64,000 nucleotides of DNA from an uncultured candidate division Zixibacteria bacterium (lineage in GTDB: Bacteria > Zixibacteria > MSB-5A5 > GN15 > FEB-12): assembly GCA_963806185.1 (NCBI GenBank), contig CAWDXE010000001.1:416001-480000 (forward strand). The letters run 5' to 3'. The notes under the pieces were generated by a model. It had not been told where the DNA came from. It saw only the letters and a program-made list of their open reading frames with translations, and ran no database searches. This document shows positions 1-59,235 of this stretch, one piece after another. Made by a program: the position numbers and the translations under genes. Every line of letters starts with the position of its first letter. Within the stretch, counting starts at the first letter, position 1.

Positions 1-968
1 TCACCGTCGGCATTGTTCTCCTGCCCGCCCGGCACCGCTCCATAATCTCCGGCGGCCTGATTGTCCAACCCCCCGCTCACCACGGCCCACGCTCCATCAA
101 CCGTGTTATGCTCACCGCCGCCGATGGCACTCCCGCGGCCGTTGGCCGTATTATTCAGACCTCCGGTAACCGTGGACAACGGGCCATTGGTCACGTTGCC
201 CGATCCACCGCCGATCGTCGACGAATCCCCGTTGGCGGTGTTCGCAAAACCAAGTACGGTCGTTTCAAGTCCATCGCTGCTGTTCTCGCCCATGGTGATC
301 TGACCCTGGCTGACAATGTCGCCGTTCGGTTTGACGATGAGCGTGGTGTCCTGTTCATCAAGGCCGAAAAACACGATCGATCCATCCTGAATCTGAATCT
401 TTTTCTGAAGCGCATTGGGCGACGATACCTTGGAGTCAACCGGTTCATAAAAGTCGAGCGATCCGCCGCCCGATGACCCCCTGCCAAAACCTATCTGCAC
501 CGACGGTCCCGCGATGGCGGGCCGATGGAGCCCCGAACCCTCAGGCACGATCGTCAGCAGTCCTTCCATCTGGCCGCCGGTCGTGCCGTCGACTGTCGAC
601 ACGCGCTGCGAGTACGCCACCGACGTCACCTGGGTCCGCGGTATGATCGATTCTCCATTGACACTAATCTCCAGCCATCGTTCCGGTGAGGCAAACACTG
701 AGTCTGTCAGCGGTACCACACTTCCCAGGACGACGGCAAAGAGCCCGCCGGCAACCTGCACCGACGGATGCGTCTCGCTCCAGAGCGCCGTACCCTGGTC
801 GGGAGAATTGAAGATTGAGAATGTCAGTGAATACGTGCTGTCAGCAACCACTTCCGTGCCGGCCTGCAGTTTCCCCTGATAGTTGATTACGTGTGGTACG
901 GCTGCATGGACTGAGCAGCCAAACGTCGCCGCCAAAATCAGTCCTGACGCCAATCGGTGAAGCTTCAT
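1..968 (-). CDS. Secreted tail-fibre/YadA-head-like repeat protein (runs off the window)
   Basis: Translated by hand; absent from the ORF track because it has no stop in the window. MKLHRLASGLILAATFGCSVHA signal peptide, then VPHVINYQGKL..LWSETH..GLFAVVLG..RWLEISVNG domain, then ~14-aa GGxxNxAxG repeats. Confidence 0.8.
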   Translation of the reverse strand, partial: MKLHRLASGLILAATFGCSVHAAVPHVINYQGKLQAGTEVVADSTYSLTFSIFNSPDQGTALWSETHPSVQVAGGLFAVVLGSVVPLTDSVFASPERWLEISVNGESIIPRTQVTSVAYSQRVSTVDGTTGGQMEGLLTIVPEGSGLHRPAIAGPSVQIGFGRGSSGGGSLDFYEPVDSKVSSPNALQKKIQIQDGSIVFFGLDEQDTTLIVKPNGDIVSQGQITMGENSSDGLETTVLGFANTANGDSSTIGGGSGNVTNGPLSTVTGGLNNTANGRGSAIGGGEHNTVDGAWAVVSGGLDNQAAGDYGAVPGGQENNADG

Positions 969-1569
969 AACGGTATGTTTCCCATCTCTGGCATAGTGTC
1001 ATCGCGAGTTTCGTGATCAGGGCATTCAAGGTACCCAGTGCGGAGATTCCTGCATTCTGTCGGCCACACCCCGACGCTTCCGAGAAGTCAAAGCCACCCC
1101 TCGTGACGGGTTGTATTCACCTGACCGATCGACTCAAATCATGGCGTCGCTCGATCACGCGCTAAATTCACGGTGTGCTTCTCTAAGAAAATATCGGCAA
1201 CGTCGATCTGTCAAGACTATTTTAGGAGGACGCACCGGTAACCGGGGTCGGGGCAGCACCCGGTCCCGGGAAGCGGTCCGGAGATGGTGAAAAAGGCGGT
1301 TAAGAATTATTTTTCGGGTGGGGGAGGCAACCAGGCCGTAAAGCGACAGTCCCCCTCCCCCCCAGTGTCGCGGTCGGCCGGCGCCTCCCAGTCACCCTTG
1401 CTGTGAGTGGGTCTCATGCGAGCAAGACCGCCCTCGAAGCGTGTGCCTTACCAATATCGGGAAGGCCACTGTCAGAATCCGGCAGTCTCAATTCAACTTT
1501 TTTTGATTACTGCCAAAATTCCCCCGCTTCGAGGCAATGCGCCAAGCCTGACCATCCAACCGGGGCAGT

Positions 1570-2184
1570 CTATACGATATCCACCTTGGAAATGCTCTTA
1601 AGGTCCTGAACCTCAATGGGTAACATGCTCTCGTCCTCCACCACCCATCCTTGGCTATACCGCAAACGAGGCCGACTAAACTCGATCTTTCTGCCGCTTC
1701 TGGTGGCAGTCTTGCTCTCCAGCCGCAACGACCACCGGTTAGCGATGGCAAGTTCGATCAAACTGGTGGTCAAGCGGTCAGAATAGTCGGGTCGACTGAC
1801 AGAGGTAGTCGTCACATCTTCGAGATTCGCGAGGACTTCTCCCACCAGCGCACAATCGGTACTCTGGATCTTCTCAATCAATCGAATGAAGTCCCGCCGG
1901 TATAACTCGTTTACATGCCGGCACATGAAACTGAGGGCACAAATGACCAACACGGACTCGGTGAGCGTGAGGTGATCCAATTTGAGATGCTGCGGCAACA
2001 GCAGTCGATACCCTTCCTGATCCCGATCGTAATAGACCGGGACAGTTGCCTCCGAAATGTCGGTGAGATAGCGGTAGGCCGTACGTGGGGCAATATTGCA
2101 GACGCTGCATATCTTTTCCAGACTAACCGGCTGAGAGCCGCTAAGCAGGTTTATCAGTCGTATGAGTCGCGAAAGTTTTGCCAT
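1570..2184 (-). CDS. HTH (YafY/PafB-like) transcriptional regulator with short, degenerate WYL-like C-terminus
   Basis: N-terminal RLIRLINLL..RTAYRYLTDI..PVYYD..GYRL winged helix; LIELAIANRWSLRLE resembles the start of a WYL domain; no WCX region. Confidence 0.7.
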   Translation of the reverse strand: MAKLSRLIRLINLLSGSQPVSLEKICSVCNIAPRTAYRYLTDISEATVPVYYDRDQEGYRLLLPQHLKLDHLTLTESVLVICALSFMCRHVNELYRRDFIRLIEKIQSTDCALVGEVLANLEDVTTTSVSRPDYSDRLTTSLIELAIANRWSLRLESKTATRSGRKIEFSRPRLRYSQGWVVEDESMLPIEVQDLKSISKVDIV

Positions 2185-2200
2185 ATGTCAGTCCTTTTGT

Positions 2201-2226
2201 CGGGGCGGACGGGTTTGCCCGCCCCG
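2201..2226 (-). other. GC-rich hairpin between the peptide gene and the HTH gene
   Basis: CGGGGCGG...CCGCCCCG inverted repeat with no U-tract on the minus strand. Confidence 0.5.
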
Positions 2227-2236
2227 CTAAATCCGT

Positions 2237-2476
2237 TTAGAAAGTCAACAATACCACCTCGACAACTCCGCCGATCACTACCCAGATCACGTCGGCAGAT
2301 GTTGCTTCAAGTCCGCCAATCGCTGCCGATTTTGGGGGAGGTGGCGTCTCGACAGGTGGCCCCCCCGAGGTTCCGTCAGCATACGCGGACTCAATGCCAA
2401 TCACCCCAGAAACGAGCAAGAAGCTCAGGATGAGAAGCGAAGTGAGCGCAGCCGTGACTGTTGCGCGACGATGCAT
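2237..2476 (-). CDS. Small exported Pro-rich peptide with hydrophobic C-terminus
   Basis: AAGGAGG RBS before the ATG; signal peptide ending AYA; DGTSGGPPVETPPPPK core; hydrophobic tail. Confidence 0.75.
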   Translation of the reverse strand: MHRRATVTAALTSLLILSFLLVSGVIGIESAYADGTSGGPPVETPPPPKSAAIGGLEATSADVIWVVIGGVVEVVLLTF

Positions 2477-2520
2477 GATGCCTCCTTACAGGTTTCTCGT
2501 GAACCCGGTCTGGCAGATTA

Positions 2521-2537
2521 TGTCAATCGTCGTGCCG
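2521..2537 (-). promoter_or_regulatory. Putative sigma54 -24/-12 promoter
   Basis: Minus strand CGGCACG-ACGA-TTGA versus consensus TGGCACG-N4-TTGC, 45 bp upstream of the peptide ATG and next to a bEBP gene. Confidence 0.6.
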
Positions 2538-2740
2538 TCTTTTCGACGCTAGAGCGGACACCGTATGCTGTTATTGTGCAATGCGTTAGATAAATTTCAC
2601 CGCTTTGCCTAAGGGGTGTCTTACCTGTGCGTGCGCTTGGTTACCACCAGTGTGACAGCAAGTCATTGATCACCTTATCTGACTCTGACCGGTTCAGCGG
2701 CAAGAATCCGGTAAACGGCAGACTTTGGGGAGTGCAAGAG

Positions 2741-5700
2741 CTAGAGCTCAATATGATACTTGAGCGCTTTTCTTCGAAAAGTCGACAGCGGCATGGCCAA
2801 CGATCGGGCGGCCCTTGACTGATTTCCATTCGCCTTCCGAAGTGCTTCCCGGATTTGGACCTCTTCCATGTTGGCAATCGCAGCCGAACCCCTGGGCGAC
2901 CTGGTGGATTTGATAATCTCGACCGGCAGAACGTTGGGTGTGATGGCCCGACCCGGCATGAGGATACACCAACTTTCGATTAATCGCTTCAGTTGTCGCA
3001 CATTGCCCGGCCAGGAGTAGATGGACAGTAAACCGATCGTTTCCGGAGTCAAAATCGGCGCCTGCCCACGGCTGAAAAGCTGAAGGAAATGATCTATGAG
3101 CAGCGGGATGTCACCAAGGCGCTCGCGCAGCGGGGGAATCTCCACGGTCACCGTATTGATTCGGTAATACAAATCCTGTCGGAATCGCCCACGTTCCATC
3201 AACTCGATCAGGTTCTTGTTAGTGGCGCAGACAAAACGGATATCTGTGTGCACAGGACGATTGCTTCCCACCTTCTCGTATTCCTGATATTCGACAACGC
3301 GCAGCAATTTCGCCTGGATCTCAAGCGGCATATCGCCGATTTCATCAAGAAAGAGCGTACCGGAATCAGCCGCCGCCAGTCGTCCCTCGCGCTCTACTAC
3401 GCCGGTGGCGACCCCCTTGGCAACGCCGAACAATTCACTCTCAACCATCGTCGGGGCCAGTCCCGCGCAATTCAATTTCACCATATTGCGCTTGCATCGC
3501 GGACTCAGGGAGTGGATGCGCTCGGCGATAATCTCCTTGCCCGTGCCGCTTTCACCCAGCAAGAGTACCGGCGCAGTCGTTTGGGCGATGCGATCGAGCT
3601 GCTCGAAGATTTCCGCGGTTTTCGGATCGCGGCTGATGAATTGGCCTGATTCGCCCAGATGTGCTAATCGTTTTTCAAGCTGGTCCGACTTGGTCAGCAG
3701 TATTCGGTATGACTGGGCATTGCTCAGAGCGACGGCCACCAGGTTTGCGATGGCCTGGATGTACTGGAGGTCGCTCGGTTCAAATAGTGAAGGAATGGTA
3801 TGGTGATCAAGATACAGCACGCCGAGCACCTGCCCTTCCACGGTCAGAGGCACGGCCGCTACGGAAAGAATATTATGAGCAATCACACTCTTGAGGGAAC
3901 GAGTGCGATTATCCTGGATCGCATTTTCCACGAGAATCGGCAGGGAATCACTGGCGGCGGTTCGCGGAATGGATCGGCTGAAATCGAGAATGTCGGCCAT
4001 GCTCTGATCATCGTCGCAGTTATACGACACGGCCGGCCGGAGTCCGGCGGCATTGCCCGTATTGAGTAAGATGACTCCCCGTTCAGCACCGGTTTGCTCC
4101 ACGGCATAGCGTACCAGTTGATACATCATTTTGGGATAGTCGTGTACGTCCTTGAGAATCGAAGAGATGCCATGGAACGAATCAATGAGGTGCGTCTGTT
4201 CATCTGCAGCCAGGGCGAGTTTGGCCAGGCTGGCTTCGATCTTCTCCAGCATAAGGGCGTTTTGCAGCTGTTTCGCGATCTGGCGCGCCTGCAAAAGGTA
4301 CTTTTTCGCGGATCTGGACCGCGATCCCTCAATATAGAAAGCACTCACTTCAATGGCGATCAACATCGCCCGGAACCGGTCCCCGGCCTGATTCAACTCG
4401 ACAAACGCCGATTTCCACCCTTTGATTTCGTCGCCCCGTTGGCCAATGTCTGACGGATACAGTAGAGTCGATAGCACGCGAAAGACCGGAACGTCGTGAT
4501 CAGAAATGACCGCGCGCAGTCGATCACGCCGGGCGCGCATGTTGTCATCTACGCTCTGCCCGCTGGCAACGATCTGAAATAGCCCGAGCGCGGCATAGAA
4601 AAAGCTCCCGCGTTCCAGCAGAACATCAATAATCGGATATACCGAGGCAGGATCGACGTCTCTTGCGTACACCAGGTCGCCGATTTTCTGTATCATATCC
4701 AACTCGGCGAGCGAGGTGATATCCTCGTACTGAGCGAATAGCTTACGGGCTGATTCAAGGGCCGATGAGAGTCTGGGCATGTCCCCTCGAATCAGGGCAC
4801 ATTCGGCCAGCACGTGATATGCCTTCCCCTCCAGGCTCGTCGGAGGAATGCTGCGCGCGATTTCAAGGGCGTGACTGCACGCCTCTTCGGCCAGCTTCAC
4901 CTCTCCTCGCCATAGCGCACAAAAGGCAGATATTTGATGGTAGTGGAGCAACTGCCCTGGATTGGCATTATTTGCTATTTCCACGTAGAATCGGCGAAGC
5001 CAGTAGTCGGCCTTGTTGATGTCACCCAATCGGACATAGGCGAGTATCAGGACGAGGCAGTTGGGAGCCAAGAGCGATCCCTGCTCCAGCTCGCCGGCCA
5101 TATTTATCGCGTTCTTGGCTGCACGTGCCGCTCCCTTGTAATCGGAAAGTCCTGTTTTGACCAGCGCAAGGGTCGAAAGCGCCGGCACAAGGACCTCATT
5201 CTTCATCGGCTCGGACAGGGCAACAGCCTTACCTAGATGCGCTGCCGCATCCAAAAACCTCCCCTGTCGCCAGTGCAGCACGCCGGAGGTGTACTCGGCC
5301 ATCGCCTCCAGGTCAACAAACCCCGCCTGCTGACTTCGCTGCCTGACCTCCTCAACCATTTCTTCTGCGGAAGTCTGCTCGTTGCCAATCATTCTTATCC
5401 AGGCCAGCGTGCGCATGAACCGGAGTTCCGAATGGAGATCGGAGTTTCTTCGCGCCACGGCAATTCCAATCTCCGCAAGTTCCCGGGCTGGGACAATATG
5501 GTCCAGTTTGATTTTTGTTTTCAGGACAAGCTGCAGACTTGACAGGTGCGCCTCCACGCTGCGCTCATCGTTCAGGACGCTGTCCAGCAGCGACTCGGCT
5601 TGAATCAAACGGTTTAGATTGTATGCTTCCGACGCAAGGTCGATGATCGCAGCCGGGTTGGCTGAGACTGCCGAGTCGTTTCCTACAACCTCACGGTACC

Positions 5701-6838
5701 TGTACAGGAAGGCCGCCTCAGTCCATTTCTCGGCACCATAGAATTCGTCGGATGGCAACTTCTGGTGCGCCTGGGAGCGATCACCCTGAACGACGGCGCG
5801 GAGACGATCGTAAATGTCAAGCAGGACGTCGTCGGCCGGATTGATCAGGAAGTGCGCTCCTGCGCGGGAAACTGCACCATGAGACAGCAGCCCCCGGATA
5901 ATCCTCATGGTCGTCCGATAGTGCTTTGCGGCCGAAGCCGTCAGCGCATTCATCAGTGTTTCGGTGATACCGAGCAGACGGCATCGCCGCCGCAGGAAGT
6001 TGTCTATTTCCGGTACCTTTTGCGAACGCGGCCCTCGGACGGATCGAAAATTGGAGAGCACAAATTGCCCGAAAAGTCGGGCACTTAGATGTTCGTACGA
6101 CTGCTGATCCACAACCTCGTTTCGCCGCAGAGCGGCTAGAATGTCATTCGGTCGCTTAAGATAGTCCGGATCGGACAGCTCGTCGGCAAGTCGTGTCAGT
6201 TTTCGGCAGTGTTCTGATGACAGCGCGTGCCCCTCGCCCCGGAGATATAAGTGCAACGCTACACCGAGCGAATACGCGTCGGACTGCGGCAGGACGGTTT
6301 GGTTGGCCAATATCTCCGGAGCAATGTGTCCCGGAGTGCCGAAGATATCGGCCTCGGGTGAATGCCCCGAAGGCAACAGGAAGTCCAGGTCAATGAGCCG
6401 CAATTCTGGTCCGCCAGAAGTACTGCGATACATGAAGTTGGACGGTTTCAGGTCGCCATGGACGACACCGGAAAGATGGAGGAAATCCAGTGCTAACGCG
6501 ATCGGGCCAAGACAGGTCATAGGAGTAAATGGAGAGAAATCATCCCCTAACGCGTGCCACGTGTCGGCGGGAAGCAAGGGATATTCGATTGCCACCCGGT
6601 CACCCGACCGGTACATAGCCACGGCCCGGTTAATCAACGATGATCTCATTGACCGCTGAGAATCCCATGATCGTACCAGTATTCGGTCAATCCGCTGGGG
6701 ATCGATTCCTGAGTCGGTCGCGGCTATTTTTACAAGTGCGGCTCTTCCCGTCCGACGATTCTCCGCAAGCCAGGACTCGACGTGCGAATTCGACGAGACC
6801 AATCGCACTGGTGAATATTCAGCAAACTCTTCTATCAC
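2741..6838 (-). CDS. Sigma54-interacting regulator: Ser/Thr kinase + TPR + GAF + AAA + Fis HTH
   Basis: HGDLKPSN and GTPGHIAPE kinase motifs; long helical TPR-like region; GAF (GAERG..GVLYLD); GESGTGKE, ESELFG, FLDEIG, FRQDLYYR; C-terminal GNQSRAARSL HTH. Confidence 0.92.
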   Translation of the reverse strand: MIEEFAEYSPVRLVSSNSHVESWLAENRRTGRAALVKIAATDSGIDPQRIDRILVRSWDSQRSMRSSLINRAVAMYRSGDRVAIEYPLLPADTWHALGDDFSPFTPMTCLGPIALALDFLHLSGVVHGDLKPSNFMYRSTSGGPELRLIDLDFLLPSGHSPEADIFGTPGHIAPEILANQTVLPQSDAYSLGVALHLYLRGEGHALSSEHCRKLTRLADELSDPDYLKRPNDILAALRRNEVVDQQSYEHLSARLFGQFVLSNFRSVRGPRSQKVPEIDNFLRRRCRLLGITETLMNALTASAAKHYRTTMRIIRGLLSHGAVSRAGAHFLINPADDVLLDIYDRLRAVVQGDRSQAHQKLPSDEFYGAEKWTEAAFLYRYREVVGNDSAVSANPAAIIDLASEAYNLNRLIQAESLLDSVLNDERSVEAHLSSLQLVLKTKIKLDHIVPARELAEIGIAVARRNSDLHSELRFMRTLAWIRMIGNEQTSAEEMVEEVRQRSQQAGFVDLEAMAEYTSGVLHWRQGRFLDAAAHLGKAVALSEPMKNEVLVPALSTLALVKTGLSDYKGAARAAKNAINMAGELEQGSLLAPNCLVLILAYVRLGDINKADYWLRRFYVEIANNANPGQLLHYHQISAFCALWRGEVKLAEEACSHALEIARSIPPTSLEGKAYHVLAECALIRGDMPRLSSALESARKLFAQYEDITSLAELDMIQKIGDLVYARDVDPASVYPIIDVLLERGSFFYAALGLFQIVASGQSVDDNMRARRDRLRAVISDHDVPVFRVLSTLLYPSDIGQRGDEIKGWKSAFVELNQAGDRFRAMLIAIEVSAFYIEGSRSRSAKKYLLQARQIAKQLQNALMLEKIEASLAKLALAADEQTHLIDSFHGISSILKDVHDYPKMMYQLVRYAVEQTGAERGVILLNTGNAAGLRPAVSYNCDDDQSMADILDFSRSIPRTAASDSLPILVENAIQDNRTRSLKSVIAHNILSVAAVPLTVEGQVLGVLYLDHHTIPSLFEPSDLQYIQAIANLVAVALSNAQSYRILLTKSDQLEKRLAHLGESGQFISRDPKTAEIFEQLDRIAQTTAPVLLLGESGTGKEIIAERIHSLSPRCKRNMVKLNCAGLAPTMVESELFGVAKGVATGVVEREGRLAAADSGTLFLDEIGDMPLEIQAKLLRVVEYQEYEKVGSNRPVHTDIRFVCATNKNLIELMERGRFRQDLYYRINTVTVEIPPLRERLGDIPLLIDHFLQLFSRGQAPILTPETIGLLSIYSWPGNVRQLKRLIESWCILMPGRAITPNVLPVEIIKSTRSPRGSAAIANMEEVQIREALRKANGNQSRAARSLAMPLSTFRRKALKYHIEL

Positions 6839-7170
6839 GTTGATGACTGAAATACCTGATGTCTCCTTACCCTAGAATATAGCCAAATAGGGCAATCAGC
6901 AAACCTTATTGACAGAGTGGAATCGCTTCTCCGTTTCACTCGTGGCCGGACTCATGCCATACGGTCCAGCCCATTTCCCGGCGGCGGCGTGCCGGGTTCC
7001 AGTGCACGGCCGGCCGCCTCGGGGCGAGCCAGTGTCATTGCCGCTTGGAAATCGGCCTGATTTGACTATCTTGAGTCATATCAGGAGACGGTCTTCGCCG
7101 GCGTCTACGCACACAGGCGCGCGACGTACCCAGGTCATATACAACATTGTGAGTTGATGGCGAGTTCATC

Positions 7171-9726
7171 ATGAAGGCTTTCTGGCCGGCCCAGGTATCG
7201 AACCCAAGTCCAGTGTGCTTCCGACCCCGAAAACAGCACGGCGATATCTATCGTCCATGCCTCCGTGCCCTCCTGCTGGTTATTGTCTTTTACAGTTTCG
7301 CTTTCGCCAGTTCCGGAATCACCGCCTGGAATAACCTGACCACCAAACCAAACCTTGATCTCATCGAAATGCCGGATGCCCACTGGGTAGCCGCCTTTGA
7401 CGCGGATGGTGACGGCAATGACGAATGCTTCGGTTGGCAATCCGAGCTGTACTTTGTATTCTCCGGCGACTTACGGACGAACATGGCATCGTGCTGGATC
7501 CGGAACATCGAGGGCGTATCCGCAATCTTCGGGGCCGAAGACTCTCTCCGCGCGTTGACTCTGAGAACCCTGATCGGCGACACGTTCAGGTACTACCTTC
7601 TGACGTGCTCTCGATGGACGGATTCCTCGGCGTGTCTTGATGAGAACAAGCCGACGCTTGTTCGCTCCCCGGAACGCATCCAAGGGCACGTTCGTGGCGA
7701 TTTCACTCCGGCCCTCTCCTGTGATGTCAACGGCGACTCCGTGTCTGATCTGATCGGCTTGGTTAATAGTGGTAAGTACGCGCTCCAGCCTCGCGGCGTG
7801 CGCGTTATCGACGGCAAGGACTACTCGCCGCTTTGGGAACGCTGCTTCGGCCAGTGGCCAATGGATCCCCGGTTGCTTGATCTTGATCAGGATGGCACTC
7901 CCGAAATCGTGGTCGCCGGAAATTCGGTCTCCAATGGCAGCACGGCCAACGGCTTCCCTGACTCGATCTGCTATCTCTTTGCGTTCGACTTGCACGGTCG
8001 TGACTTCTGGCCCCCGATTCGGCTCGGCGGATCGCTGACATATGCACGTTTTGCACCAATGCCGAACCAGCCCAAGGTCGACCGCAAACTGGTAGTTGTC
8101 ACGCGGTCCTTTCAGGATGACCAACCTCAGGGCGCCATGATGATTAACGCCCGTTCCGGACAGATAATTGCCCGCCTTGATCACTCTCCAGGCTTCGGCT
8201 CGCTCATGATCCTGCCCAACACGGATACGAACGCACGAATCTGCGCCGCCACCGTCGACGGCTCCATACTGCTTCTCGACGATGAGCTCGGAATTCGCCG
8301 ACAGGTCACGTCGGCATCAGAAGAGCCGTTCATGCTCCGCGCCCCCATGGACATCGACAACGATTCAATCAGCGAAATCGTCGCGTCCAGGGGAAATGCC
8401 GTCTGGCTGTTCACCGCCACCCTTGATTCCGTTTTTGTTCATACTTTCGATGCTCCGGTCTCCGGTCTGTTTCCCATGCGATGCGTGAGTGGCTCCGGCT
8501 GCCGGTTCATCATTCAGGTGAAAGAGCATGCCTTTTCCGCCAGGGCCTCGCGAATCAGAAAGAATCTCGCCGAAATGGTGCCGCCGGTCGTCCAGGGTAG
8601 CGTCGCTTCCATCCTTTGTCTGAGCGTGATCTTCGTCTTTGTCCAGCGTCGACGCTATTTGTCCTTTCTCAACGTCGTCTTCAATGACAATTCACGGATC
8701 ATCATCGCTCTGGACAGCCAAACTCGAATTTTCCGGATCAACGAGGGCGCGCGCAAATTCTTTGGTCCCAAGGCCCAATCCCTCATGGGAAAACCACTGT
8801 CGGCCATCGACGACGATAATCGCTATGCAGAACTCATTGCCGCCATTCGGGACTTCTCGGGTGGAAGAGAATCGTCAGCTCAGTGCGAACTGCGCATGCT
8901 GCACCGCGGAAGCCCGCGAGAGATGCTTCTTCAGCTCACCAGACTCGGGCGGGGACGTCTGTTCACAGGCACCGATATTATTCTCACGATGCAGGACATC
9001 ACCAGAGTCACTCAGGAGAAACTGTATGAGAGCTGGGACGTCTTTTGGCGCGGACTGGCCCATGATTTGAAAAAGCCGCTCGCGCCCATGCGCCTGTTCC
9101 TCCAGGACCTGGGGCGGCGACTCAATGATAAGACCGTGGAGATCGATCACATCAACGCCCGCTACATCGAACCGGCGCTGCAACAGCTCGACTTGATGAC
9201 CCGCCTGATCAATCGTGTCCCCCGTGCAACTGATGCTGAGTCCGCGCCGCGATCCCGCATCGGCCTCGATGAAGTCCTTACGTACGTCGTGAGCATCAAA
9301 CGATCGACTCTCCCCGAGCACATCACCCTGAACCGATCCGGCTCGTTGGAACCTGCCTGGGTGAACGGAAATCGGGACGACCTCACGCGTGTCTTTATGG
9401 AACTCATCGACAACGCCGTCAAAGCGCTCGGCACAAATCACAAGGGCAGGATTACGCTTTCCTGTCGTCAGGACAACGGGGACGCCCGCGCCGTGCGCGT
9501 TGAAATTGAAGACGACGGTGGCGGGATAAGCACTCAGCTTCTCCCCCGCATCTTCGAGCCCGGCGTGACCACCGGCGGCTCCGATCACCAGGGACTGGGT
9601 CTCTTCACCGCCCGAAGAGTCGTCACACAGCATGGTGGCCACATCGAAGTTCGCAGCCAGGAAGGTGGCGGCACCGTATTTGCTGTCATATTGCCCGCGG
9701 ATGGAGCGGAGGTCCCTTGTGAATAA
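7171..9726 (+). CDS. Membrane sensor histidine kinase with extracellular FG-GAP-like repeats and PAS
   Basis: DADGDGNDE, DVNGDSVSD, DLDQDGTPE repeats; TM helix; PAS-like segment; LAHDLKKPL H-box; N, G1 and G2 boxes. Confidence 0.9.
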   Translation: MKAFWPAQVSNPSPVCFRPRKQHGDIYRPCLRALLLVIVFYSFAFASSGITAWNNLTTKPNLDLIEMPDAHWVAAFDADGDGNDECFGWQSELYFVFSGDLRTNMASCWIRNIEGVSAIFGAEDSLRALTLRTLIGDTFRYYLLTCSRWTDSSACLDENKPTLVRSPERIQGHVRGDFTPALSCDVNGDSVSDLIGLVNSGKYALQPRGVRVIDGKDYSPLWERCFGQWPMDPRLLDLDQDGTPEIVVAGNSVSNGSTANGFPDSICYLFAFDLHGRDFWPPIRLGGSLTYARFAPMPNQPKVDRKLVVVTRSFQDDQPQGAMMINARSGQIIARLDHSPGFGSLMILPNTDTNARICAATVDGSILLLDDELGIRRQVTSASEEPFMLRAPMDIDNDSISEIVASRGNAVWLFTATLDSVFVHTFDAPVSGLFPMRCVSGSGCRFIIQVKEHAFSARASRIRKNLAEMVPPVVQGSVASILCLSVIFVFVQRRRYLSFLNVVFNDNSRIIIALDSQTRIFRINEGARKFFGPKAQSLMGKPLSAIDDDNRYAELIAAIRDFSGGRESSAQCELRMLHRGSPREMLLQLTRLGRGRLFTGTDIILTMQDITRVTQEKLYESWDVFWRGLAHDLKKPLAPMRLFLQDLGRRLNDKTVEIDHINARYIEPALQQLDLMTRLINRVPRATDAESAPRSRIGLDEVLTYVVSIKRSTLPEHITLNRSGSLEPAWVNGNRDDLTRVFMELIDNAVKALGTNHKGRITLSCRQDNGDARAVRVEIEDDGGGISTQLLPRIFEPGVTTGGSDHQGLGLFTARRVVTQHGGHIEVRSQEGGGTVFAVILPADGAEVPCE

Positions 9727-11086
9727 GCCCGTGATTTTGGCCATTGACGACGACTTGAACTTTCTGGCCGCCCTGCAGGTGGTGCTACAGGATCAATACG
9801 ACCTGATCCAGGCAACATCAGGTGAAATCGGCCTGCAATTACTCAAGAAGAACCGGGCAAACACTGTCCTGCTTGACGTCAACCTTCCGGGCTCAGACGG
9901 AATCGTCATACTTGGCTCAATTCGGGAGATGTTCCCCGGCCTTCCCGTTGTCATGGTAACCGCCGAAAAGCAACTGGCCGTGGCAGTTGATGCAATCAAG
10001 CGAGGCGCCTTCGATTATCTTGATAAGCCGGTCGATCGTGATCGCCTCCTGACCACCATTCGCAATGCACTGGCGGTCGAAGCCGGGGAGCGAGAACGCG
10101 CCGCCTTGATCGATATTGCCAAACGGCTGTATCCGATCATCGGAGACAGTCCTGCCATGCAGCACGTCCGCGAATTTGCAGCCAAGGTGGGCCCTTCGGA
10201 TCTCCCGGTCCTTATCACGGGCGAGACGGGTACCGGCAAAGACCTTGTAGCCAGACTGATACACTACTCCAGCCGGCGCGCAAGCTTGCCATTCATCAAA
10301 CTCAATATGGCCAGTGTTCCGGAGGACTTGCTCGAATCGGAACTGTTCGGCCATAGGCGGGGAGCCTTTACCGGCGCGGTCGCTGATCGAGAAGGTGTCT
10401 TCCGCGCGGCCGAAGGCGGCACACTTTTTCTCGACGAGATCGGACTTGCTTCCCGTCGCATGCAAGGCAAAATCCTCGAGGCGGTCGAGAACAGGGAATT
10501 TGCGCCGGTCGGCGCTAACCAGAAGATCAAAGTGAACATTCGCATCGTCACGGCCACCAATAAAGACCTCCGGGCCGAAATCCAGGCCGACCGCTTCCTT
10601 CTCGATTTGTACCACCGCATCGCCGCCCTCGCCATTGACATTCCGCCACTGCGAGAACGGCTGGAGGACATTATTCAGATCGCCGAACACTACCTCGCCC
10701 TGGGTTCCGCCGAATTGCAGGCCCCCCCACGGTCGTTCGCCCCGGAGACGAGACAGCTCCTCCTCGATCATTCGTGGCCGGGAAACGGCCGGGAATTGAA
10801 GGGAACGATTATGGCTGCCTTACTTTTCTCTGATGACCAGGTGATCGAGCCGGAGGATATCGCCATACATCTCCACCGCGCTCCAGGTAAGGCCTTGAAC
10901 GGCGACCACTCCCTGTATCACAACCTCCGCACTTGGGAGCGCGAGTTTATAAGCAGGGCACTCCTCGCGTGCGACTACGATATCCCTAAGACAGCCGCCT
11001 TGATTGGTGTCCACAGAGTCACGCTGTACAAGAAGCTGAGAACACTGAACCTCGAAATCCACAACTCCACCCAAGAGAAACTGTAA
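9719..11086 (+). CDS. NtrC-family sigma54-dependent response regulator
   Basis: GTG start overlaps the kinase end; REC (IDDD, LLDVNLP), GETGTGKD, GAFTGA, Fis HTH. Confidence 0.95.
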   Translation: MNKPVILAIDDDLNFLAALQVVLQDQYDLIQATSGEIGLQLLKKNRANTVLLDVNLPGSDGIVILGSIREMFPGLPVVMVTAEKQLAVAVDAIKRGAFDYLDKPVDRDRLLTTIRNALAVEAGERERAALIDIAKRLYPIIGDSPAMQHVREFAAKVGPSDLPVLITGETGTGKDLVARLIHYSSRRASLPFIKLNMASVPEDLLESELFGHRRGAFTGAVADREGVFRAAEGGTLFLDEIGLASRRMQGKILEAVENREFAPVGANQKIKVNIRIVTATNKDLRAEIQADRFLLDLYHRIAALAIDIPPLRERLEDIIQIAEHYLALGSAELQAPPRSFAPETRQLLLDHSWPGNGRELKGTIMAALLFSDDQVIEPEDIAIHLHRAPGKALNGDHSLYHNLRTWEREFISRALLACDYDIPKTAALIGVHRVTLYKKLRTLNLEIHNSTQEKL

Positions 11087-11531
11087 CCGATTGGCTACAA
11101 AACTCCCCGCGATGGTGCCGTTCGGCAACAGCAATTGTGGCTGTTTCACCACCTTGGCTCAAATCAACCTAATCAACTGCTTGCCAGTCAACGACAACAA
11201 AACCGTGATCCGACGCGCACACCATTTGCTTGTATGCTCGCTGACTTCAGACGTGAAGTGAAATTTGTCGTGCTCTCATTTGTCGCGAAAGCATGCTTGA
11301 CGTCGGGCGGAGATTATGAAACGCGATGGTCGCTGCGAAAATAGTTTCCTGACGATCACCGGCTACAAAAAGAAGCTCAGAGGTGGGATGTGATGTAGGG
11401 TTCCAGATTAGAATCGGCTCGGACGATCAAATCTCCTCCGAGTGTCGGCAACCGGTGGTGCTATGTGTGCTCAGCGCTACCGGTTGTATTTTTTTCTAGA
11501 TTTTCGAGCAGCAGGCGTCTCTCAGTCGATG

Positions 11532-12302
11532 TCAATGGAGGTGGATCAGGAGTGCCGCTCCGGCATTGCCGCCGCTGGTGACTGGAGAGATTCCCAGGTT
11601 GCGGGTCAATCGATTTCGGCCTACCACTTCATGGGCCACTATGTTCCCCAGAAGACAGCCCGCGACCACATCGCTGATGTAGTGTTTGTTCTCCTGAAGC
11701 CGCGACAACCCGACATATCCGGCCACCGCCTCGGCGGCGATTCCGGGTATCGTGCCGTAGCGATTGGCAATCACTCCGGCGGTCGTAAAGGCCATGGTTG
11801 AGTGGCCCGACGGAAACGAGTAGGGTGCGCCATCCGGTCGACGGCGGTTGGTTGCCACTTTCAGTCCGGTCGATAGGGCGCCTGAAATGACGAGTGCACT
11901 GAATAGATCGGATCCCAGTCCGGCCATCTCCTCACTATGCCCAATCTTGCCTATTGAATACAAAGAAATAGCCGCCCCGATGTGAACGATACCGTTTCCC
12001 AACACGTTCCCTGCCTCAAAAACGTGATCCACTGCAATACGATTCGTCCAGGAGCGATAAGGATGATTGGTCTCGTCGTCAAATACGGACGGGACAGCCC
12101 CGAACATGAACAATCCTCCCCAAAAGCGCGGCTGTTGCCCCAGAGCCGTGACATTGCCGGCAAGATCGGAAAACAGATTGGAGGAAATAGCCAAACGGCT
12201 GTCGGCGCTCCACGTCGACGTGGCCGACACCAGGATTGAAAACAACATCGTCGTACAAAAACGCACGGCAGCACTCCTTCGGGGTTTAGCCGACTCTTTC
12301 AA
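11532..12302 (-). CDS. Phosphatase PAP2 family protein
   Basis: KxxxxRxRP, SFPSGH and SRxxxxxHxxxD motifs; signal peptide. Confidence 0.9.
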   Translation of the reverse strand: MKESAKPRRSAAVRFCTTMLFSILVSATSTWSADSRLAISSNLFSDLAGNVTALGQQPRFWGGLFMFGAVPSVFDDETNHPYRSWTNRIAVDHVFEAGNVLGNGIVHIGAAISLYSIGKIGHSEEMAGLGSDLFSALVISGALSTGLKVATNRRRPDGAPYSFPSGHSTMAFTTAGVIANRYGTIPGIAAEAVAGYVGLSRLQENKHYISDVVAGCLLGNIVAHEVVGRNRLTRNLGISPVTSGGNAGAALLIHLH

Positions 12303-47761: not shown

Positions 47762-50700
47762 CTACTGACACGCCGGCAGCGGCGCGAAGGTGATGAACAG
47801 GTTGTTGATCAAAGCTGTCAGGTCGCCGATGTCGATGCCGCCTAATCCGTCACAATTGGCCTCCGGCTCGCAGCAGAGCGGCTCAAAGGTGATAAACAGG
47901 TTGTTGATCAGTGACGTCAAGTCGCCAATGTCAACACCATCACCTTCGCTGCAGTCGACATTTCCAACTACGGCAATACAGCAACTGGCACTCGGTCCGC
48001 CCACGGCCAACCAACCAAGATCGGTCATGCCGGTCGCCGATACCGTGTTGGCGGCTGTGTCTACTACGGTAGCTGCCACTGGACTCCACGTGGAGCCGCT
48101 ATCGCCACTGCGATAGAGTATCAATGTCGCTTCCGTCACACCATTCAACTCGCCATCGACATAGTGGAACACGACTGCGGCGTTCGCGCCTGTCTTCACC
48201 GTCGGTTTGACGGCGAAGTGTCGCTTAATACTGGGGCTGCCGCCGACCGTCAAAGACGTACCCGTGACGCGCGTAACCTGCGTAGAACCCGGCGCTGTCC
48301 CGGCCGCGGCTATTTCGAGGCCAAGTCCGCCAAATAATTCCGGCGTCCCGCTCGCAAGCGCTCTCGTCGTGCCAACCCGGCCCTGGACAACCCAAATGGA
48401 GTCCTCGACAATTGTCGCCGACGGTGCAAGCGTCACCGCAAAGGCTTCCGTTGAAAGAACGCTGTCGGCCAAATGTAGTTGGCCATTGACCGTCACATTG
48501 CTGCCCAGTTTCACCCCCTTGTTGCCAAGGATGCGCAGATCGCGAAGAGCCGTTGCCGACACAGGCAATTCCGGACCAGTCGTCACTGAATCGACCGAGC
48601 TGATATACTCGACATCAACGACGCTGTCGAAAACAGGTGCCACGGTCAGCGAACCAGTAGCTCGACGAAGGGTTGACTGCTTCGCCATGTGCAGCGCCTT
48701 ATCGTCGGATGAACCGTTATTGTCGAACGTCCCCATTGAGAGAGTTAGATCGCCGTTAACTGTCGCATTGGTTCCGAGCGTTACCGTCTGGCCCGACGAA
48801 TAGATGGTCAGATCTCTCAGCGTCGTAGTCGCCGTCGGCAGTTCCGGGCCGGTGGTGACGCCCGTTGTCGAACTGGTGTAGCGGACATTAACCACGCCCT
48901 CAAACTGCGGCGCCGCCGCTATCGTACCGGTCGCCCGGCTGATCGTCGCACCGTTCCCCAGTTTCAGATTGGCCGTACCCGCACTGTTGTCGATCTGGCC
49001 GGAAGTCATGCGCAACAGACTGTCCACCCGGATCGTCTGCCCGCTTCCCGCCAGCACCAGAATAGCGCTGTTGTTCACTTCCAGACTGTCACTCACCAAC
49101 CGATTGTCGGTCAATGTCCAGGTCTTCTTCGTCCCGTTGCCGGCAAAGCTGAACTCGATATCCCAATAGTTGGTGTCGATCACCACCTGGTCGGTGGTGG
49201 CGCTGGACGGGTTGCGCTGATACCGCACCCGGCCATCGTTGACCAGCGTGGGAGGAAAAACGGTCGTCGACGATGTGGTTTTGTAGATGCCCCCGCGCGA
49301 CAGGATGACCACCGAAGTGTCAAACCAGATGTCCGAAGTGGTCTCCTGGAGCAGTATCCCCGCCGAGTCGACGGTGATCGTTCCGGGGTTGAACATCGCT
49401 CCGCTGGTGGTTGTCCCCAGACCGGTGTTGAGATGGAGCGTCCCCCCCGGCTTGACATTGATGTTGGCCAGACTGATGTCGGACGAACTGGCATCGATAA
49501 ACTCAGCCTCGCCATAAATCGTCATCGGCCCGATCGGTGCCGAGCCGGTGTTGGAGCGGACCCAGTGCGATCCGGTACCATCGACCAGGTGGAACTCTGC
49601 TCCCGGCTGGACGGTAATGGTCAGCTGTTGATCGGCGGTGAAATTGCCCGACGAACTCCAGCGTGACTCCAGATCGTCGTCAATCGCCAACAGGAAACTG
49701 CCGCTCTTGACGTCGAGACTGTGCTGAATCCCCAGACGCATGCCCGTACCGGCGGTGCTGACCGTGACGGTGGAGTCCTTGGCGATAATCAGATCACGGA
49801 ACGAGGTTGACCCCGCGCTGGTGCTGAAGCCGGAGATGACAGCCGGAGCGCTGCCGGCGAAAACGACGTACGCGCTGTCGGATGACCAGCCGGCGGAAAA
49901 GACATTGTGGGTTTCGGAGAAGAGGGTGAAATCGCCGTAAATGGAAAGACGACTCTTGGCGTTAAGATCGATCAGCGCGTCGGTGCCGCCGAAGGTGACC
50001 GACTTGCACATCGCCAAGGTATCGTCTACTGAAATCGTATGGCCGGCCAGAATCATCACGTCATCGTCAGCCGTCGGAATGACCCCGCCCAACCAGGTCG
50101 TAGGAGCGGTCCAGGAGCCGGATTGAGCCGAAATCGACTGACCGGAAAGAATGAGGCCGCTCAGGGTCCAGCGCGAGAAGGCATTGACGCCCGCCAGAGT
50201 TACCGTATTGGCGAGAGTGTCGCGCGTACCGCCGCGCAGTATCCAGGTCGCGCCGTAGTCTGAGGATGCGTACAACACCAGAGTGTTTTCGTCCAGTCCA
50301 TTGAGATCGGCCTGGTCGTACGTAAACACCATCGTGGCATTCAAAGCGGTGTTGTTTGCGGGTGAGATGTCAAAGTAACGAGAAACACTTGGGCTGCCAG
50401 TTAATCACCTGGGGCTGGCCCGTGACTCGCGTGACGTTGGTCACACCCGGCACACCGCCGGCGGCATTGATTGAAATGCCCAGCCCACCAAACGTTTCGG
50501 CCGTCGATTGTGCCATTGTCCGCGAAGTGGCGATGTTACCGAGGACGCCAAAACCGTTGGTTTCGGTCAGGGTGGCGGTCTGAGCAAGGGTCAATGTGTA
50601 GCCATCGGTCGACAGATCGCTGCCGTTGACAACAACTGCACCGTTGACGGTGGCGTTGCTGCCGAGAGTCACACCTTTGTCGCCGGTAATGGTCAGATTG

Positions 50701-53318
50701 CGAAGCACGGCGGTTCCCGTCGGAATTTCAAAGGCAGTGATAGCCGGACTGACGGTGCTGATGTATTCCACATCCACGACTCCGGCAAAGCCGGGGGCCG
50801 CTGTCAGAGCGGCTGAGGCCCGCCGAATAGTTGAACCGTCGGCCATATTCAAAGTGTAGTCGTCGTCCGCACCGTTGTTATCAAACGTGCCGGCGGAGAG
50901 GGTAAGAGCGCCGTTTACCACCGCGTCGGCGCCAAGCGTTACGATCTGGTCGCTGGTAAATATCTGCAGGTCGCGCAGAGCGGAGGAGGAAGTCGGCAGT
51001 TCTTTGCCGGTCGTCACAGAAGTTGCGCTGCTGGTATATTTTACGTCGCATACGCCCGCAAACGACGGCGCCGAGGTCATGGTGCCGGTGGCTCGAGAGA
51101 TTAGACTGCCATCGGCCATGCTAATGGTCACGTTCCCACCCGTATTGTCCAGGGTGCCCGAAGTGAGACGGAGGGTGTTATTGATAGTCAGCGTCTGGGC
51201 CGAGGCCGCGCTCGGATAAACCGTGGCGCTATTATTGACTATGAAGCTGTCGGTAACCATGCGTGGTGCCGTCAGGGCCCACAGCTTACGATGGCTTCCG
51301 CCGGCAAAGCTGAATTCTACGTCCTTGTAATCGCGATCCACGACGTTCTGATCGGACGCCGTCGAAGGGTCGCGCTGATAACGTACCTTGCCGTTATTGG
51401 TGAAATTCGTCGGAAAGATGGTCGAACTTCCGGTCGTCTTGTACGTGCCGCCGGGATTTAAGATCACGATAGACGTATCAAACCAGAGGTTGGACGTCGA
51501 GGTGCTGTAAATGTTTCCTCCGGAGTCGACAGTAATCGTTCCCGGATTGAACATGGCGCCGCTCGTGGACGTATAGAGACTCAATCCCAGTTCCACGGTA
51601 CCGCCCGCTTTTACATCGATTCCGGCGATACTGATATCCGACGAACTGGCGTCAGTAAATTCCGCATAACCGTAGACGGTCATTTTTCCGATCGGTACCG
51701 AACCGGTATTTGACCGAATCCAGTGGACGCCACTGGCTCCGTCATTGACTAACCGGAACTCGCCGTTCGGCTCCACAGTGATTTTCAAATTCTGGTCGCC
51801 GGTCAGAGCCGCACTGCTCGCCCATCGGGCTTCCAATTCGTCGTCCGTTGCCAGGACGAACTTGCCGCTCTTGATATCCAGACTATTTTGGATACCAAAA
51901 CGACAATTCGTGCCACTGGTTGTGAGCACTGTTCCGGAGTCCTTATCGACGATAATATCCCGGAACGCCGTGCATCCAGCGGAAGTGCTCCATCCATAGA
52001 GAGTCTGCGTCGCACCGCCGGCGAACCGGACAAAGGCGCTATCGGACGACCACCCGGCCGAGAATACATTGTGTACCTGACTGAACAGCGTGAAATTGCC
52101 ATAGACAGACAAGGTAGACTTTGCGTTGAGATCGATGTGGGATGCAGTGTCACCAAATGATATCGACTGGCATTCCGCAAAATTGTCGTCGATGGATATG
52201 GTGTGACCAGCGGCAATCACCACCGGATCATTCATGGTCGGAACGATGCCGCCGGCCCAGGTGACGGCTGATGACCATGAACCGGATTGGGCTGACGTAA
52301 TCTGTACGTCGGGAGCAAATGTCTGCGCCACCGCATCGGCCAGTTTGTACCAATTGGCCTCGGTGTCGCGAAGTTTGGCGTACGCCTGTTCGAGATGAAG
52401 GAACTGGCCCGTATTCGCAGTTGCCGCCTGATCGCACGGGTCAGCCGACCCGTTGATCAGTCGTCCCTGCACATTATCCTGACCGAGGTAGTAGTTGTAG
52501 GCCAGGTCCACGTGCGCGATCTTGAACGTCAGCGTGTTGTCTTGCAGTAGTAGCTTTGCCTTGAGTGGGGCCAGGTACTCGGTCGCAGGAGTCAGCTGGC
52601 TGCCGTTGCTCATGATAATATCCGGGTCCTCAGCGCTGTAATCCCCCTTGGTATACCCATGAGGCTGGATGACGATGGCGTTGCTGCGGTAGGCAAGCAG
52701 CTCCTCAGTGGTAATCTCAAATGTCGCGCTGGAGGCATGCGCCTGATCGCCGAGGCGATACGGCTCGGACGAATCAGCACACGAAGTAGAGGTCCCGGAA
52801 CATGGAGAATAAGAAGTGGAATTGCACTTGTGAGCGCCGGCCAGGCAGAAGATCCAGGCGTCGGCGGTGGTGTATACTCGAATCGACTGATTGCCTGTAT
52901 TCAGATTCTGCAGGGGATGAGGCGCCTGAATGACCAGGCGAGACCGGCTCGGGCTGGGATTGAATACGAATGTACCCCAGTAGTTGGTCGTGGAGCCGGG
53001 TGTCCGTTCGAGCACCCAATAGACCTGATCAATCACGGGCGGCGTGTCGGTGAATTGCACCACTCGATAGTCGATCGTCCCGGCGAGAGTATGGGCGGCC
53101 GCGTGATCACCACTCAGCATCGCCTGAATAATCTGGCGCCACGTCTGAGTCCCGGTGGTAGTCGGTTCCACATACTTGTCTTGATCGATCCCCGCATCGG
53201 TCGGCGACGCGGCGATAATTGAGTCGATGTGACTAGTGATACTCCCAGTCATCGTGACCTGGCCGCTCGCGCTGGCGCAGATCAGCATCAATGCGATGAG
53301 CATTAACCGGTGATACAC
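47762..53318 (-). CDS. Giant secreted protein: putative Zn-hydrolase domain, two G8-like/beta-solenoid modules and dockerin-like tail; split by +1 frameshift near 50399
   Basis: ORFs 50370-53459 and 47762-50344 join as VINGSPSVSRYFDISP when one base is removed; GTG start after AGGAGG. Confidence 0.8.
48807..50047. repeat. ~1.24-kb near-identical duplication, copy 1
   Basis: Matches 55709-56949; three substitutions seen by eye. Confidence 0.95.
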
Positions 53319-53455
53319 GCTGACATTCCTCCTGCCGGTATTAGATACCAGCCCTGCATATTTCCAATGAATAAGTTCTGGTGAATAGGCTCTCGACGTC
53401 GCCCCCGTCCGGATCGACGTCTTCCGTTCGACATGTCCCTTTCGCGTCGCTAATA

Positions 53456-54517: not shown

Positions 54518-54877
54518 TTGGCGCTTCGCATTCTGACCGAAGATTCGGCCGTCTCAGTGCTGTTGATCCAGTGCAGACGCCTCTCGCGGCTCTGCTGATT
54601 GCCACCGTTTTAGTACAGCCCTATGGCACCCCCTACACACGACGCAATGCACCGTTAACTGGATGGCTTGTGCGCCCTCCAAACCACGAGGCGGAAATTC
54701 TTTCTTAGGCTGTAACAATTTCCATGCCAGTATTTTGGCTGCTGATAGACAACGACTTAAGTGGGCTGATGGTGGACACCGATGACCAGTTCGGGCTGTT
54801 TCCGCACGCTCTGTCGTCCGGAATTAGCCCATTAATTGTGGCAATTTGATCAGGTGAAGAGAACCAGCGCGACGATA

Positions 54878-54904
54878 CCGCCCGACCTATGGTCGGGCGG
54901 CTAC
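54878..54904 (-). repeat. GTAG-type REP-like palindrome / hairpin
   Basis: GTAG-CCGCCCGACC-ATA-GGTCGGGCGG on the minus strand. Confidence 0.55.
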
Positions 54905-54936
54905 GTTGCTGGATAATCAGGAGATGCAGAGGATTG

Positions 54937-58044: not shown

Positions 58045-58112
58045 GTTCTCACCGGTTATGCTCTTGCTACACGTTTCTGAGTCTTCATATATATCGACGC
58101 GCTCAGCCACAT

Positions 58113-59231: not shown

Positions 59232-59235
59232 AACT

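Follow-up and report, generated by a model that had tools for sequence, protein, structure and literature searches.

Cytoplasmic peptide-TPR signaling has been described for Gram-positive bacteria and their phages, and its RRNPP pairs (Rap-Phr, NprR-NprX, PlcR-PapR, and AimR-AimP) consist of a small Sec-type propeptide gene beside the gene for a cytoplasmic TPR protein (PMC10075063). We identified a similar arrangement in DNA from an uncultured candidate division Zixibacteria bacterium (GTDB lineage Bacteria; Zixibacteria; MSB-5A5; GN15; FEB-12), in a stretch of 64,000 nt referred to here as the window (GCA_963806185.1, contig CAWDXE010000001.1, positions 416,001-480,000). In it, a gene for a sigma-54 activator with kinase, TPR, GAF, and AAA+ domains is followed by a sigma-54-type promoter, a gene for a small protein with a predicted signal peptide, and a gene for a helix-turn-helix (HTH) regulator of the WYL type. 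The gene order and promoter parts recur among relatives, all three genes are under selection, and small signal-peptide genes are paired with TPR-bearing sigma-54 activators in several families. This pairing is new here, and a literature search that could not reach supplements and most subscription papers found no description of the cassette. The cassette is likely an undescribed peptide-signaling system, with putative binding of the peptide by the TPR domain. We tentatively favor, at a little under an even chance, a feedback circuit in which the activator would switch on its own downstream sigma-54 promoter and a fragment of the peptide would return to the TPR domain as the signal.

By analogy, the cassette likely works like an RRNPP pair. 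Its peptides (53-105 aa) and the distance from receptor to peptide gene (about 260 nt) are mostly within the ranges given for RRNPP systems (10-100 aa and -60 to 400 bp), whereas its receptor has 1365 aa, with kinase, GAF, and sigma-54 AAA+ domains, compared with 250-500 aa (PMC10075063). Because of this difference in size we do not count the cassette as an RRNPP member. It also differs in having a diderm host, in that the importer Opp is mostly missing and binding of the peptide to the TPR domain is only proposed here, and in that longer relatives show that the TPR domain came with a STAND module. Window-type activators differ in turn from the STAND (MalT-like) receptors, having no P-loop NTPase module ahead of the TPR domain.

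The NifA, NorR, and FhlA activators share the GAF-AAA+-HTH_8 core and an adjacent -24/-12-like promoter with an IHF-like site, and the best NCBIfam match of the cassette activator is nifA (310 bits, under its cut-off of 529). Unlike them, the cassette activator has an N-terminal kinase, a TPR solenoid, and an xxATGV loop, the promoter usually has GA or GT at -12, and the target would be the peptide-WYL pair. The PEP-CTERM system with PrsK, PrsR, and PrsT also has a TPR protein and a sigma-54 promoter with an enhancer ahead of an exported protein with a hydrophobic C-terminus, whereas the cassette peptide lacks a PEP motif, a full transmembrane helix, and a basic tail, occurs as a rule in one copy per genome, and goes with a one-component kinase-TPR activator (PMC1569441). 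Judged by sequence, the activator is not a canonical GAFTGA activator and the peptide is not a PEP-CTERM substrate. The third cassette protein resembles DriD, PafBC, and DdaA (PMC10853764, PMC12392091) in its winged HTH, helical bundle, WYL fold, and base-reading arginines, and differs in lacking the WCX dimer domain and in having lost the Tyr and Arg positions that bind single-stranded DNA.

Recurrence of the cassette and of the peptide-activator pairing

Relatives were searched in 285 genomes of one phylum. The HTH protein has matches in 151 of these, a count that includes full-length WYL paralogues, and wide regions were examined for 100 of the 150 matches listed, selected for short open frames; the window brought the set to 101 loci. 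Activator, peptide, and HTH genes stand in this order in 90 of the 101, although three of these peptides end early. The other 11 are two loci with the longer STAND-containing form (with the same peptide and an AAA-like paralogue), one in which the peptide has an internal stop, two at contig ends, three with other WYL genes, and three without a peptide. Since anchoring on the HTH gene alone would be circular, the GAF domain of the activator served as a second anchor, which gave 40 further loci with 34 family members, seven of them cut by contig ends. A peptide gene lies behind 26 of the 27 intact activators in this set and behind none of the six other GAF proteins. The occurrence of the cassette in order, far above chance, is thereby confirmed. 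The first-pass annotation of this DNA had suggested looking beside homologous activators for a sigma-54 site, a small signal-peptide open reading frame (ORF), and an HTH gene, and in both sets the combination recurs.

The activator and peptide genes are 264 nt apart in the window and 224-321 nt apart in 89 of 90 loci. A hidden Markov model (HMM) of the peptide family matches 113 of the 285 genomes, mostly with one copy each. The neighboring genes vary, the most frequent being those of secreted FG-GAP proteins (18 loci). A ribosomally synthesized and post-translationally modified peptide cluster was considered and rejected, since no modifying enzyme is conserved and just 3 of the 101 loci have a radical SAM gene after the cassette. 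Most titled relatives are Zixibacteria, and 60 of 61 titled loci are identical in DNA to loci of the single-phylum search. Ignavibacteria were rejected as a second host phylum because all 27 records so titled are the same DNA as loci of that search. In one locus (L071, G105:C16:67309-67887) the peptide gene is tandemly duplicated between the activator and WYL genes. In loci L273-L277 (family f20) two genes encode the sensor and GAF-AAA portions of the activator separately, with the peptide still behind.

The pairing extends to other TPR activators. In the host genome a signal-peptide ORF of 45-150 aa with a ribosome-binding site is adjacent to all four TPR-bearing sigma-54 activators, to none of 16 other activators, to none of five other TPR proteins, and to 3 of 300 random genes. 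The three further TPR-type activators (C1:318863-321034, C3:230941-233919, and C6:18413-20683, all on the minus strand) are each directly preceded by a gene for a signal-peptide protein of 115-133 aa. Among the 30 best-scoring loci of each search, the pairing holds at all 26 evaluable loci of a family of 720-aa TPR activators (the other four are at contig ends) and at all 30 of a 980-aa family. At E 2e-5 to 3e-4, the HMM of the window family also matches the peptides ahead of two other TPR-activator families and ahead of a 407-aa TPR-only protein. By eye, the 980-aa family mostly has EHPWD-x-D or a near variant right past the cleavage site, and PW or D-D-x-G-W motifs are frequent in the 720-aa family. 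The most conserved mature letters of both families sit just past the predicted cleavage site, which agrees with the core segment proposed in the first-pass annotation. Because the pairing is found in several families, the small protein tracks the TPR domain and not the kinase or the WYL gene, and this is the strongest reason to see in it a TPR ligand, a role assigned provisionally, through guilt by association.

Two loci with such pairs have further features. Behind the C1 activator come a sigma-54 site and a gene, interrupted by a frameshift, whose product resembles a radical SAM/SPASM protein. In locus L279 (G072, 6010-7525) a window-type peptide gene is directly upstream of the gene for the 407-aa TPR-only protein, and the size and adjacency of this pair are those of RRNPP pairs.

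Parts of the cassette and candidate targets of its regulator

All parts that the first-pass annotation had listed for the cassette (activator, -24/-12-like site, ribosome-binding site, 79-aa ORF, hairpin, and HTH ORF) are present, on the minus strand. The kinase-TPR-GAF architecture of the activator was recovered by Pfam, with the TPR solenoid seen in the model and in the fold search. The Pfam domains are Pkinase (aa 27-202), TPR_MalT and TPR_12 (both below curated cut-offs), GAF (903-1038), Sigma54_activat (1068-1232), an AAA lid, and HTH_8. By fold, a Ser/Thr kinase (aa ~4-255) and a small alpha/beta linker precede a TPR solenoid (~390-870) and a GAF domain (~880-1050), after which come the AAA+ domain and a Fis-type HTH; the AlphaFold model of aa 4-1055 has a predicted local distance difference test score (pLDDT) of 88 and a predicted template modeling score of 0.87. 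The activator has no clear transmembrane helix. Among 81 homologues, kinase residues K37, H127, D129, D150, and D187 are completely conserved, and DLD replaces DFG. Walker A (GESGTGK) and Walker B (LDEI) of the AAA+ domain are intact (PF00158, E 1e-58), and loop 1 reads GVATGV (aa 1142-1147) rather than GAFTGA. Members of the family have about 1310-1460 aa and the STAND forms 1620-1740 aa. None of the 81 window-type activators has a STAND Walker A pattern; a longer relative (L119) carries GESGIGKT in a STAND module between kinase and TPR.

The promoter site, GGCACG-ACGA-TTGA, is about 45 nt ahead of the peptide start codon. It scores 17.0 bits with a position weight matrix (PWM) built without the window, and a combined promoter score puts it first among 1656 candidate sites in the host genome. 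Of 90 loci, 49 have YGGCA-N6-TTG within 15-90 nt ahead of the peptide, compared with a mean of 0.24 and a maximum of 2 in 100 dinucleotide shuffles, and 74 have GG-N8-TTG (shuffle mean 4.6). The location and spacing fit a -24/-12 site, but the -12 element of the window is GA instead of GC; the base after TTG is A in 46, T in 20, and C in 11 of 77 sites, so that only 11 have the expected GC.

Motif discovery yielded a 25-bp palindrome, which 78 of 87 loci carry at -51 to -53 relative to the sigma-54 site and which recurs near -148. We take this palindrome to resemble the IHF consensus; one HU/IHF gene was found. It has 198 sites genome-wide, 108 of them intergenic, a number that led us to reject it as a WYL operator or recA-specific motif, and it lies beside sigma-54-type sites in 13 of 198 cases, compared with 20 of 3642 random positions. 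Across 87 loci, TTGCC repeats are conserved some 190 nt ahead of the -24 site; homologues also have an inverted GGCAA roughly 100 nt ahead of the site, and the window copy is nearer than the family norm. The repeats and the inverted element together form a candidate enhancer, or upstream activating sequence (UAS), of the activator. A layout of enhancer, bend, and promoter is that of sigma-54 activation (PMC7175178), and from these sequence features it is highly probable that the activator drives the peptide-WYL operon through sigma-54. UAS scores failed to separate targets, and no activator-specific regulon could be defined.

As the first-pass annotation had proposed, the peptide precursor has a predicted Sec signal peptide (aa 1-33, 2378-2476) with an h-region and the pattern AYA|D, from which cleavage is predicted, then the core DGTSGGPPVETPPPPK and a hydrophobic C-terminus. 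The mature chain in the window is acidic and rich in Gly and Pro, starts with DGTSGGPP, and ends in an 18-aa hydrophobic helix (2240-2293) without a basic tail. Among 91 called peptides only one precursor exceeds 100 aa, the predicted signal peptide has a median of 34 aa, and the mature part has a median of 49 aa and a net charge of -7. At least two K/R occur in the first 14 aa of 86 of the 91, Ala at -1 in 73, and D/E at +1 in 90, at sites chosen by a score that favors these features. The mature chains of the family begin D/E-G-G-G-x-PP and end in a hydrophobic helix of 13-15 aa without basic residues (no K/R in the last five residues of 73 of 88; median best 19-aa hydropathy 1.07), which is too short and lacks the basic tail for a membrane anchor, a role we therefore rejected. 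The ratio of nonsynonymous to synonymous rates (dN/dS), from 10 close pairs, is 0.34 for the peptide, 0.18 for the TPR domain, and 0.10 for the AAA and HTH genes. The peptide and the TPR domain are the fastest-evolving parts of the cassette, and a value of 0.34 indicates purifying selection on a real, fast-evolving gene. The family HMM, which includes the window, matches the window peptide at E 1.7e-9. A single-sequence search with this peptide returned only itself, there was no Pfam match and no usable ESM Atlas match, and the NCBIfam search gave only a non-significant match to LAXTG_small_WW (E 0.087).

The spacer between the peptide and HTH genes of the window folds at -23.3 kcal/mol (z -3.6), and z is below -2 in 44 of 83 spacers. 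We rejected an intrinsic terminator because only 3 of 83 have a U tail; the hairpin is probably an RNA-stability or processing element. The regulator is an HTH_11 protein by Pfam, and the top Foldseek matches of its model (pLDDT 83) are DriD (E 8e-8), PafBC (1e-6), BrxR, and CapW. Pfam WYL was matched by no HTH family member among the 25 families listed, and the WYL domain, part of the HTH/WYL regulator of the first-pass annotation, is for this reason assigned by fold only, whereas the HTH is found by Pfam as well. The HTH profile, searched against PDB sequences, returned only matches with E > 0.1. R34 and R38 are kept in 85 of 86 cassette WYL proteins; their DriD counterparts R37 and R41 read the bases (PMC10853764). 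In the 86 aligned members the chain ends past the Sm-fold strands at about 204 aa, without a WCX domain, and the columns for Y156, Y181, R196, and R199 of the full-length WYL protein of the host, the positions assigned to binding of single-stranded DNA, are not conserved. With these losses, the regulator would answer to its own expression level and not to single-stranded DNA. Elsewhere in the host genome (C7:584243-585826) a perfect recA-type box and another short WYL gene come after a full-length WYL gene, and loci L123 and L124 likewise have a full-plus-short pair.

The recA box of the phylum is ACTGACAG-N3-CTGTCAGT, with scores of at least 14 in 28 of 29 recA promoters; it combines the GACAG-N3-CTGTC core of the DriD crystal site with the N5 spacing of the DdaA motif (PMC10853764, PMC12392091). 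Near cassettes the box occurs upstream of the activator in 23 of 75 loci and downstream of the WYL gene in 15 of 85, compared with none of 86 coding controls. A -10-like hexamer follows 8-10 nt past 27 of 51 flanking boxes and points away from the cassette, so the flanking boxes are outward promoters and not the activator's own. The window box has GATATT 9 nt downstream and forms with it a candidate WYL-activated promoter. It faces a secreted-protein gene (3-968, minus strand, starting at 968) about 480 nt behind it, the portion of which within the window has no Pfam match. Three other loci have a similar protein after the cassette, and genes behind flanking boxes often encode secreted proteins. 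The host genome has 40 sites scoring at least 14, and the genes behind them, by sequence reading, include recA, a comM-like gene, transposases, and secreted lipoproteins. Three near-identical promoter regions, at C6:138437, 205943, and 226578, each carry a perfect WYL box and precede lipoprotein genes that are paralogues of one another. A relaxed box variant occurs in 25 of 104 cassette-bearing and 8 of 156 other genomes, and the canonical box in 28 of 104 and 28 of 156, in a hand classification in which kin are not independent. That the relaxed variant belongs to the short WYL protein is only suggestive, and the window's own box is outside the strict pattern of this variant.

Proposed feedback and alternative explanations

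In the mechanism that we propose, the activator would bind the TGCC repeats, loop over a site bent by IHF or HU, and open the -24/-12 promoter, giving one peptide-WYL transcript. The peptide would be exported by Sec and cleaved at A-x-A|D/E. A short fragment would re-enter the cell, perhaps through OPT, and bind the TPR groove with an activating or inhibiting effect; the DG-G-x-PP segment at the N-terminus is the most likely candidate, with the helix at the C-terminus as the alternative. We give even chances to such binding after re-entry. The short WYL protein, blind to single-stranded DNA, would bind DriD-type boxes and relay the signal to sigma-70-type promoters, often those of flanking secreted-protein genes, in a relay that may overlap the recA regulon of the full-length WYL paralogue. 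The mature peptide (83 alignment rows) was co-folded, without controls, with aa 235-1052 of the activator, which span the TPR-GAF region (81 rows); the score of 0.00 speaks neither for nor against binding.

Several observations weigh against this circuit. The lpxC gene of the host indicates a periplasm and a two-membrane cell, and the peptide must cross the inner membrane from the periplasm to re-enter. RRNPP systems use the Opp importer. A search of 209 genomes (each at least 90% complete except the host) found Opp/Dpp binding proteins in 56, and in only 6 of 76, 1 of 25, and 1 of 17 genomes of the main carrier families; neither they nor SbmA were found in the 82%-complete host genome, and no protease or transporter is conserved near the cassette. 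An import route does exist, though not a specific one, since the host has a POT transporter and 115 of the order's 117 genomes have OPT transporters. In three genomes of one genus, probably through a single event, the peptide gene is gone and the WYL protein is cut to about 85 aa, with promoter and activator kept. The TPR dN/dS in this lineage (0.16 and 0.24) shows constraint as elsewhere; no other copy of the peptide was found at E 0.1 in two of the genomes (each 96% complete) and only an E 0.015 match in the third. The activator can therefore be useful without the peptide. The solenoid matches NprR (Z 20.6, root-mean-square deviation 4.9, 337 aligned), Rap (19.9), and AimR (18.0), and is about equally close to LGN, APPBP2, NprR, Rap, MalT, and AimR (Z 18-22), which shows a generic fold of the peptide-binding type and not kinship. 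The recA-type box is also present in genomes without the cassette and is not exclusive to carriers. Of the peptide/TPR circuit drawn in the first-pass annotation, the pairing has held well, and with Opp mostly missing and one lineage keeping the activator alone, we infer rather than observe that it is autoinducing.

The peptide-less lineage, in which the activator stays under selection after loss of peptide and WYL protein, would fit a circuit without feedback, in which the small protein is only an output and the activator senses a phage or host protein or a metabolite through its kinase, TPR, or GAF domain. The STAND module of the longer relatives is like that of pattern-sensing regulators, the GAF domain is conserved to the same degree as the ATPase, and in the window family the peptide gene sits downstream, as a target would. 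We find this rather unlikely, since it leaves unexplained the pairing at all TPR activators and at none of the 16 others, including families with the peptide upstream. The coupling of peptide and TPR would be retained, and the missing Opp accounted for, if the precursor reported on export or the state of the envelope: when Sec or signal peptidase falters, the unexported precursor or its C-terminal helix would bind the TPR domain, with no re-import. The short, tailless helix and the frequency of secreted proteins behind flanking boxes are consistent with such a role. It is nevertheless unlikely, because the family motifs right past the cleavage site (DG-G-x-PP and EHPWD-x-D) suggest that a free new N-terminus is read, and OPT offers a possible import route.

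The loop of the activator bears on the promoter step itself. Ala takes the place of the loop 1 Phe in 72 of 81 homologues and the last residue is Val in 77, GAFTGA mutants usually fail to activate (PMC7175178), and GAFTGA is treated as defining in PMC12316311. Together with the GA or GT at -12 and a weak sigma-70-like match (2546-2517) that overlaps the site within chance levels, this could mean that the GVATGV protein does not function as a sigma-54 activator and instead represses or blocks a promoter opened by another of the host's activators or by sigma-70. That is very unlikely given that the loop Thr is kept in 77 of 81, both Walker motifs are intact, the AAA dN/dS is low, and the whole enhancer-IHF-promoter layout is conserved behind the gene. 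The STAND-type relatives, moreover, combine this xxATGV loop with canonical TTGCA promoters.

A two-membrane version of cytoplasmic peptide-TPR signaling with a sigma-54 ATPase as output would widen the range of peptide communication and raise the matter of return across the inner membrane without Opp. The activator family is a natural test of the GAFTGA requirement, and surveys that filter on this motif (PMC12316311) would discard such activators. The short WYL protein suggests a route to part of a DNA-damage-type regulon without DNA damage. A wider scheme, which we regard as doubtful, would have Zixibacteria running at least three paralogous families of TPR sigma-54 receptors, derived from STAND-type sensors and each with its own exported peptide code, with the window's signal boosted through feedback and passed on to a WYL protein that is blind to ligand and taps the recA/comM DNA-damage regulon. 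Such a scheme would amount to peptide communication of the RRNPP kind in a diderm host, run through sigma-54 by activators whose loop is not GAFTGA. All parts of the cassette are soluble and open to testing in a laboratory host.

Features and surroundings in the window

Table 1. Positions of cassette features within the 64,000-nt window.
Feature	Position	Strand	Basis or detail
Kinase-TPR-GAF sigma-54 enhancer-binding protein, 1365 aa	2741..6838	-	Pfam, AlphaFold model, fold searches, motif counts over 81 homologues
Tandem TGCC repeats directly past activator stop codon, candidate UAS	2698..2720	-	Motif conservation
Inverted GGCAA-type element, candidate second UAS half	2595..2606	-	Window score 11.1
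25-bp palindrome TAA-N4-TTG-N5-CAA-N4-TTA, IHF/HU-like bending site	2564..2588	.	Motif discovery
Sigma-54-type promoter	2520..2537	-	Site 2523-2536; GG 2536-2535, TTGA 2526-2523, predicted transcription start near 2511
AGGAGG ribosome-binding site of peptide gene	2481..2486	-	Sequence
79-aa peptide precursor	2237..2476	-	ATG at 2476; family anatomy, dN/dS, family HMM
GC-rich hairpin, peptide-HTH gene spacer, no U tract	2202..2225	-	Folding energy z-scores
204-aa winged-HTH, helical bundle, and degenerate WYL regulator	1570..2184	-	Model, Foldseek, residue counts
DriD-type box (1468-1486) and GATATT (1453-1458)	1453..1486	-	recA-derived PWM score 16.0; geometry common to other flanking boxes

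Along with lpxC, rpoN and lexA were detected in the host genome. An Rfam search of window positions 1-12000 gave no match. Six co-oriented ORFs of 311-1093 aa at 47762-60589 (minus strand) have no Pfam match at E 1e-8. A gamma-glutamyltranspeptidase gene at 60845-62784 (minus strand) is broken across two frames, and the lpxC, POT, and two OPT genes of the host genome are likewise split, which suggests assembly indels. A divergent pair at 7171-11086 (plus strand), which is not conserved beside homologous cassettes, encodes an FG-GAP/PAS histidine kinase and a response-regulator activator with a canonical GAFTGA.

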